Under the pieces are notes generated by a model. That model searched no databases. It was not told the DNA's origin and saw only the letters and a program-made list of their open reading frames with translations. A program made the translations under genes and the position numbers. From Escherichia phage 212, in sequence record PQ765507: a DNA stretch of 64,000 nucleotides; one strand, given 5' to 3'. The first letter of the stretch is position 1. Each line of letters starts with the position of its first letter. Positions 58,098 through 59,002 of this stretch are shown here, one piece after another.

Positions 58098-58640
58098 ATG
58101 AAAAAAGTAATCGCCACCTTACTATTGACAGTTAGTATGTCTGCCCATAGCGTAGAGCCTACTTTCAGTAATGAACAAATGGGGAACCTCCAATATGCTT
58201 ATGCGTTTGGAGAACAGTTCCAGAAAAATGGTAAGTACAAAGAAAATCCGCATCAACATAATGGTTTGGGATATATCATGGCTGGTTTAACCTGGCAGGA
58301 AAGTTCTGCTGGGGTTAATACTGGATTAAATAAAGATAAGCATCATGCATATGGTATATTCCAAAATTATCTTCCAACCGTCCGCGAACGCGTGAAACAG
58401 GTTGGGTGGACAATGACAGATAAAGAAATAATCAAGATGATAAGCAAGAGAGAGAACAGTGCACGCTGGGCTTATATTGAGCTTTCATACTGGTTGAATA
58501 TTCATAAGGGGGATATAAGGAAAACACTATCATCATATAACGCAGGGTGGAATGTGAAAGCTGGTAATAAGTATGCTTCACAGGTCCTAGAAAAAGCTAA
58601 CTACTTAAAATCACGAGGCCTATTAAAAACGGTGGATTAA
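58098..58640 (+). CDS. secreted protein with lytic-transglycosylase-like motif
   Basis: N-terminal signal peptide MKKVIATLLLTVSMSAHS; LTWQESSAG ... AYGIFQNY resembles an SLT catalytic E-S ... G.FQ pattern. Confidence 0.5.
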   Translation: MKKVIATLLLTVSMSAHSVEPTFSNEQMGNLQYAYAFGEQFQKNGKYKENPHQHNGLGYIMAGLTWQESSAGVNTGLNKDKHHAYGIFQNYLPTVRERVKQVGWTMTDKEIIKMISKRENSARWAYIELSYWLNIHKGDIRKTLSSYNAGWNVKAGNKYASQVLEKANYLKSRGLLKTVD

Positions 58641-58642
58641 AA

Positions 58643-59002
58643 ATGGTAAGAGTTATCACTTTAGCCATAGGGTTAGTATTCAGCATGGGAGGAATAGCTT
58701 CAGTACAGAGCGACGACAACAACAGCATCATAGAATATGCAACGAGGACGGCTAAAGATTATTGCGCATCAAGCAATGTGGATTGTATAATCCAGTTCAG
58801 TGCCAAGCTCACCGCAGCCTATAAAGATGGTCAAAATGATGTTGAACATACGCTTTTGAAAAAGAATGTATTATCCAACAAATATGAAAAGAAATTATTT
58901 GAAATGGATTGCATTCTATCAAGTGCAAAATATAAAGCGGCCTGCACCAGTATGGTTGACAGGTTAGTGGATTCATATAATAGAGGATTGAACTCTAAAT
59001 GA
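58643..59002 (+). CDS. secreted/periplasmic hypothetical protein
   Basis: N-terminal hydrophobic signal MVRVITLAIGLVFSMGGIASVQS; four Cys. Confidence 0.45.
   Translation: MVRVITLAIGLVFSMGGIASVQSDDNNSIIEYATRTAKDYCASSNVDCIIQFSAKLTAAYKDGQNDVEHTLLKKNVLSNKYEKKLFEMDCILSSAKYKAACTSMVDRLVDSYNRGLNSK

Follow-up and report, generated by a model that had tools for sequence, protein, structure and literature searches.

Several described systems bear on the two small genes analysed here. EtgA is a small, signal-peptide-bearing transglycosylase under the control of a small partner protein, and Spackle of phage T4 (gene sp, 61.3) is a small helical periplasmic protein, made with a signal peptide, that inhibits the tail lysozyme gp5. 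Family-1 lytic transglycosylases carry the motifs G-L-M-Q and A-Y-N-x-G, and in goose-type lysozymes assisting Asp residues follow shortly after the catalytic Glu. The two genes themselves have counterparts in T4, where vs.1 and vs occupy 61726..62271 and 61386..61733 of the record NC_000866 (vs lies at 4387..4734, minus strand, of locus L001). Nolan et al. 2006 (PMC1524935) reported an SLT match for vs.1 in each of six T4-like genomes, citing earlier PSI-BLAST results for the T4 gene, and the protein is named 'Transglycosylase SLT domain-containing protein' in UniRef and in some GenBank records. The 2006 paper's SignalP table is devoted to novel ORFs only, with vs and vs.1 outside it, and neither gene appears in the main text of the T4 proteome/transcriptome paper PMC9697503. 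[quoted passage not shown] Neither the gene names nor the likeness of vs.1 to SLT is new, and the locus we describe is ordinary save for the mismatch between this label and the predicted export of Vs.

The window, a stretch of 64,000 nucleotides from Escherichia phage 212 (PQ765507), carries both genes on the plus strand. A preliminary description had placed two ORFs at 58098..58640 and 58643..59002 and had quoted the strings LTWQESSAG and AYGIFQNY from the first product; both ORFs are indeed there, and the strings correspond to residues 64-72 and 84-91 of the first protein. Over 2.1 kb around the pair, nucleotide identity to Escherichia phage P479 and Shigella phage SP18 (the latter classified in Straboviridae, Tevenvirinae, genus Gaprivervirus) is 98.6-98.8%. 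The annotated closest relatives carry regB, vs.1, vs, tk.4 and tk.3 under the matching stretch, and the T4 record has the same gene order as the window, regB-vs.1-vs-tk.4. Shared gene order and the relatives' annotation identify the two ORFs, at the level of sequence, as orthologues of T4 vs.1 and vs. The first (58098..58640) encodes a 180-aa precursor of what is predicted to be a small single-domain SLT-type (GH23) lytic transglycosylase, and the second (58643..59002) a 119-aa precursor annotated 'valyl-tRNA synthetase modifier'; protein identity to T4 is 66% for Vs.1 and 45% for Vs. Both match PHROGs families (E 3.7e-67 for Vs.1; E 1.2e-32, phrog_1256, for Vs), the Vs.1 family being labelled 'unknown function' there, and NCBIfam gave no useful match for either protein. 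The ATG of vs.1 is preceded by GAGGA. A promoter and terminator scan of 56500..60200 returned the same counts as shuffled sequence and therefore allows no operon boundaries to be claimed.

Upstream of vs.1 lies RegB (PF10715, E 3e-72). Its mechanically called ORF, 57572..58087, begins at a GTG that precedes the Pfam match (residues 23-169) by 19 codons, and the true start is probably the ATG at 57629 (MTTIDSS...). Downstream of vs follows the macro-domain protein Tk.4 (58999..59478; PF01661, E 5e-8), whose best NCBIfam match is the DarG antitoxin ADP-ribosyl glycohydrolase domain, at 1.1e-6 and far below the model cut-off; judged by its domain, this homologue might be an ADP-ribose-removing counter-defence enzyme.

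The preliminary description had called the two products an adjacent secreted pair, and their N-termini bear this out. With a script of our own we looked for a signal layout consisting of a positive n-region, an h-region of 10-18 hydrophobic residues and small residues at -3/-1. Vs.1 reads MKK followed by VIATLLLTVSMSAHS and then VEP. Here a positive n-region leads into 16 residues without charge, whose best 9-residue Kyte-Doolittle mean is 2.74, and small residues occupy -3/-1. The predicted Sec signal peptide of Vs.1 (58098..58151, plus strand) comprises residues 1-18, MKKVIATLLLTVSMSAHS, with cleavage most likely between A-H-S and V. Vs reads MVR followed by VITLAIGLVFSMGGIA and then SVQ, and its predicted signal peptide (58643..58699, plus strand) comprises residues 1-19, MVRVITLAIGLVFSMGGIA, most likely cleaved between G-I-A and S; both cleavage sites are predictions from the layout. 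Each of the 35 aligned Vs.1 relatives keeps this layout, as do 27 of the 29 Vs relatives, the two failures being one protein without a charged n-region and one that is N-terminally truncated. The residues that make up the layout vary: the majority fraction is 0.47 in the signal region of Vs.1 against 0.66 in the mature part, and 0.55 over the first ~20 residues of Vs against 0.73 for the remainder. Such a combination of varying residues and constant layout fits the behaviour of cleaved signal peptides. Model confidence is lower over the Vs.1 signal peptide (block means 58 and 64) than over the body of the protein, and in Vs the pLDDT is below 50 at residues 1-4 and 16-23, with the first 20 residues averaging below 50.

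These N-termini are rare in the window. A crude rule of our own for such an N-terminus is passed by 3 of the 98 plus-strand ATG ORFs of at least 60 aa, namely vs.1, vs and the rI antiholin homologue at 60985..61278, and by 1 of 70 ORFs on the non-coding strand; the signal-like N-termini of Vs.1 and Vs exceed chance expectation. The rI antiholin family is known to be exported. Lying 2 kb downstream, the RI homologue has a signal-anchor-like N-terminus (MDLIRGLSLSLIILGCLG), the ORF just before it (60637..60912) has a hydrophobic segment at its start, and distant phages likewise have an Antiholin (PF24205) gene within a short distance after vs, with a few genes in between; this part of the genome thus brings together several genes directed at the envelope.

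For the first protein, a lytic-transglycosylase-like motif made of E-S and G-x-F-Q had been proposed, and the residues concerned prove to be invariant. In an alignment of 35 Vs.1 sequences the invariant positions are W66, E68, S69, S70, G86, Q89, N90, Y147, N148, G150 and Y159, and most of them fall into three motifs, all on the plus strand. Motif I, W66-Q-E68-S69-S70 (58293..58307), contains the codon of the predicted catalytic residue E68 (58299..58301); motif II, G86-I-F-Q89 (58353..58364), in which F88 is nearly invariant too, is the counterpart of G-L-M-Q; and motif III, S146-Y147-N148-A149-G150 (58533..58547), with S146 and A149 conserved to 90% or more, is the counterpart of A-Y-N-x-G. 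A second glutamate, E128 (58479..58481, in a helix reading Y-I-E-L-S-Y-W), is also invariant in 35 of 35 relatives and is without an assignable counterpart among the family-1 transglycosylase motifs. Other large phages encode Vs.1-like proteins of 23-34% identity that have a signal-like N-terminus, A-A-I-A-W-[KQ]-E-S-S and mostly A-Y-N-x-G.

Profile and structure comparisons point in the same direction. The Pfam SLT family (PF01464) scores the window Vs.1 at 15.3 bits (E 0.016), below its 21.3-bit threshold, and matches 34 of 35 Vs.1 relatives at E <= 0.01 (best 1.3e-7), several of which bear a precomputed PF01464 match. In hhalign comparisons E68 falls on E64 of MltE (E 0.19, weak) and on E505 of the Slt70 precursor, which is E478 of the mature enzyme (E 0.1, weak), and G-x-F-Q falls on GLMQ in both, so that the statistics are weak and the register consistent. 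The AlphaFold model of Vs.1 (pLDDT 84.2, pTM 0.79; good except for the signal peptide and one loop) shows a lysozyme-like all-helical catalytic fold of the SLT/goose-lysozyme type, and its top Foldseek matches are all GH23 enzymes, at weak E-values of 0.04-0.3. The preliminary description would have been refuted by the lack of a predicted signal peptide and of similarity to the muramidase fold, and neither outcome arose. Sequence searches of the PDB with Vs.1, Vs, the relative P0077 and a Vs.1 profile gave no meaningful match; hits to a metacaspase and to an amyloid peptide (E 0.4-0.9) were dismissed as chance.

We consider it highly probable that Vs.1 is an exported SLT-fold enzyme. It is conceivable that the protein has this fold and acts as a hydrolytic goose-type muramidase, or binds peptidoglycan without catalysis, and the sub-threshold Pfam score of the window copy and the invariant E128, to which no role can be assigned, would suit such a protein; we nevertheless judge it very improbable, given that all family-1 lytic transglycosylase motifs are invariant, the catalytic Glu included, and that the best matches are lytic transglycosylases. 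That the active site is strictly retained even in relatives of 23-34% identity speaks for catalysis. As for a muramidase, the 35-sequence alignment has no invariant Asp in the interval from E68 to G86, the place of the assisting aspartates in goose-type lysozymes, and the lack of a conserved Asp after the catalytic Glu makes a transglycosylase more likely than a hydrolase.

We surveyed 74 viral loci encoding Vs.1 relatives and read the gene after each. Of these, 56 have a Vs.1 that is at least 41% identical, three of the 56 having come from a separate search of distant metagenomic phages, and in 56 of 56 vs.1 is succeeded by a Vs-type gene at a spacing of -8 to +7 nt. This next gene encodes 99-122 aa with a hydrophobic N-terminus and exactly four Cys in the mature part, the two exceptions being visibly truncated copies. 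In the window the vs.1 stop and the vs start are arranged as TAA, 2 nt, ATG (58638..58645, plus strand), and vs in turn overlaps tk.4 by 4 nt (stop and next start sharing ATGA). In T4 early clusters genes often overlap or abut, so that tight spacing by itself says little about a functional link; the frequency of such overlaps in the cluster rather suits the alternative that vs stands next to vs.1 merely by inherited gene order and encodes a cytoplasmic protein. We think this unlikely, and the linkage argument rests not on spacing, but on the persistence of the pair when its flanks change: adjacency holds in 56/56 loci even with both flanks different, and in distant phages the gene after vs.1 is still PF26829 though regB and tk.4 no longer adjoin.

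In L009 the vs gene (3041..3298) is shortened to 85 aa by an internal deletion that takes out the first Cys pair, and in L038 (3049..3246) it is truncated to 65 aa; vs can therefore decay while vs.1 remains intact. Vs.1-like exported SLT proteins of 23-34% identity without a following Vs-type gene are found in L058-L079 (viral contigs of 5-264 kb), and in L058 and L059 the Vs.1-like gene is followed instead by one for a membrane-anchored protein that has a Cys pair at its C-terminal end.

The AlphaFold model of Vs (pLDDT 77) is a four-helix bundle with helices at residues 24-40, 46-69, 74-90 and 95-116. The four Cys that had been noticed in this protein are Cys 41, 48, 90 and 101. Cys41 and Cys48 (C-x6-C; 58763..58786, plus strand) flank the loop between helices 1 and 2, and Cys90 and Cys101 (C-x10-C; 58910..58945, plus strand) flank the loop between helices 3 and 4. 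Among 29 sequences this second pair is invariant and the first pair nearly so; both pairs are also kept across 46 distinct family members, and we infer Cys41-Cys48 and Cys90-Cys101 disulfides. As an alternative to disulfides, the cysteines of a cytoplasmic Vs might form a Cys4 zinc site; the signal peptide and the lipobox described below argue against this. The columns at least 90% conserved among the 46 distinct Vs-family sequences are M1, one Ala, three Cys, two Gly and one Leu, the fourth Cys being spread over several alignment columns by indels. All 28 of 28 Vs relatives carry PF26829 ('ValRS_modifier'), and a Vs profile run against 1.84 billion representative proteins gave 8 matches at E <= 0.001; as judged from these profiles, the Vs family is confined to T4-like phages. 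One of the eight matches, P0119 (3694 aa), is a repeat protein in which 17 weak repeats sum up, and was set aside as spurious. Vs showed no informative resemblance to solved structures, and its model has no fold or sequence similarity to the known lysozyme/transglycosylase inhibitors Ivy, MliC/PliC, PliG and Spackle. When full-length T4 Vs with an N-terminal His tag was made in the cytoplasm, it ended up in inclusion bodies (PMC8076793), a result that fits export and proves nothing.

One branch of the family is of particular relevance for the location of Vs. In the homologues of the CC31 group (Enterobacter phage CC31, GU323318; L035 3049..3375, and L036, L037 and L054) the N-terminus reads MKKLFVLLVVFALSGC, in which a lipobox, L-S-G-C, replaces the signal-peptidase I site. 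A lipobox is without a role in the cytoplasm, so the Vs of this group makes sense only as an exported protein. ValRS is a cytoplasmic enzyme of the host, and a label of cytoplasmic ValRS binding is incompatible with export of Vs unless the gene assignment is wrong or some Vs stays inside. With its predicted signal peptide, its four conserved Cys and its fixed place after vs.1, Vs would be a poor fit to a cytoplasmic ValRS-binding protein.

The label has data on its side as well. On the established reading, Vs is a cytoplasmic binder or modifier of ValRS, its N-terminus is no working export signal or the protein acts before or instead of export, and Vs.1 works alone. This is what the ValRS-modifier annotation in all databases says, which rests on Muller and Marchin 1975, 1977 (as cited in PMC8076793), and it would agree with T4 fitness data in the preprint 10.1101/2025.11.20.689424. 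There, no T4 gene is depleted more strongly than vs in minimal medium (M9 log2FC -2.19, adjusted p 0; LB mean reads per site 26.6), and a vs deletion impairs plaque formation on minimal medium only, a specific defect that, like the log2FC, fits amino-acid/tRNA economy. For vs.1 the comparable LB column gives 22.6, with an M9 log2FC of -0.87 that loses significance on correction (adjusted p 0.155, raw p 0.0055), and for tk.4, regB and vs.3 the same preprint gives LB mean reads per site of 289.6, 178.6 and 652.1 and M9 log2FC values of -0.07 (adjusted p 1.0), +1.17 (adjusted p 0.80) and -0.06 (adjusted p 1.0), respectively. In LB, vs and vs.1 lie about 10-fold under tk.4, regB and vs.3 in reads per site, and both are classed as non-essential in T4 (10.1101/2025.11.20.689424). 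These transposon data suggest that vs and vs.1 behave alike and that both contribute to fitness, although the low vs.1 read counts could reflect a polar effect of insertions on vs. The M9 effect could be accounted for by a function in the envelope just as readily as by one connected with the tRNA synthetase.

A cytoplasmic Vs sits less well with a signal layout that is kept while its residues vary, with the CC31-group lipobox in place of a signal-peptidase I site, and with a family that conserves little beyond four Cys. The literature consulted, in which the 1970s work appears as citations, yielded no evidence tying the genetic locus vs to this ORF. We regard the cytoplasmic reading as unlikely.

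We favour, as probable on the available sequence evidence, a reading in which vs.1 and vs form a conserved T4-like two-gene module acting in the periplasm and made up of a lytic transglycosylase and a disulfide-stabilised partner. Whether Vs is specifically the periplasmic partner of Vs.1 seems to us evenly balanced. In this proposal, Vs.1 and Vs would be made together early in infection and then be exported by Sec to the periplasm of the infected cell. After loss of ~18 residues, Vs.1 would be a single-domain family-1 (SLT, GH23) lytic transglycosylase of about 18 kDa, in which Glu68 would serve as the single acid/base catalyst on the MurNAc-GlcNAc bond, generating 1,6-anhydro-MurNAc ends. 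Acting from the periplasm, Vs.1 would cut or remodel the wall locally without relying on the holin/endolysin (t/e) lysis genes. The preliminary description had suggested wall modification, a block of superinfection or interaction with periplasmic defence components as possible roles. Vs, after loss of ~19 residues, would be an 11-kDa four-helix protein with two disulfides that shares the compartment with Vs.1, and it would most likely act as a regulator, an inhibitor or a targeting partner, any contact between the two proteins being part of the proposal.

A bolder version, which we put forward tentatively and regard as rather doubtful, is that the long-annotated T4 'valyl-tRNA synthetase modifier' is in fact an exported, disulfide-bonded periplasmic regulator or inhibitor of Vs.1. 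If this were true, the ValRS-modifying factor would come from a different ORF in the region, or the link would be indirect, and the minimal-medium defect of T4 vs mutants would reflect an envelope function and not a translation function. The clash between the features of Vs and its cytoplasmic label is the sole unusual point of the locus and is cheap to test, and confirmation of Vs export would correct an old annotation that has been copied into hundreds of phage genomes. The locus also draws attention to what an early exported phage transglycosylase may do, as distinct from gp5, the tail lysozyme, and e, the endolysin.

In comparison with T4, the window has the same order of vs.1 and vs, the same signal-like N-termini and the same four Cys; the two genes overlap by 8 nt in T4 and are separated by a 2-nt gap in the window, and otherwise there is sequence divergence only. 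The distance to the E. coli family-1 enzymes is much larger, with Vs.1 just 12-17% identical to the Slt70 catalytic domain, MltE/EmtA and MltC in structural alignments. It also differs from them in being soluble and single-domain, without a lipid anchor, superhelical or LysM domains, and in being encoded by a phage early-region gene. EtgA of type III secretion and the VirB1-/P19-type enzymes of conjugation are small specialised lytic transglycosylases of transport machines; vs.1 is without adjoining secretion-machine genes, and Vs has no detectable similarity to EscI or to another known partner of specialised transglycosylases. Spackle resembles Vs in being a small helical signal-peptide protein that works on a wall-cutting enzyme of the phage in the periplasm, with the corresponding action of Vs on Vs.1 a matter of conjecture; it differs in lacking sequence or fold similarity to Vs and in that its gene is not beside that of its target. 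By analogy, EtgA and Spackle may be considered the closest working analogues of the proposed Vs.1/Vs module, and since neither is related to Vs by sequence or fold, the resemblance is one of logic only.
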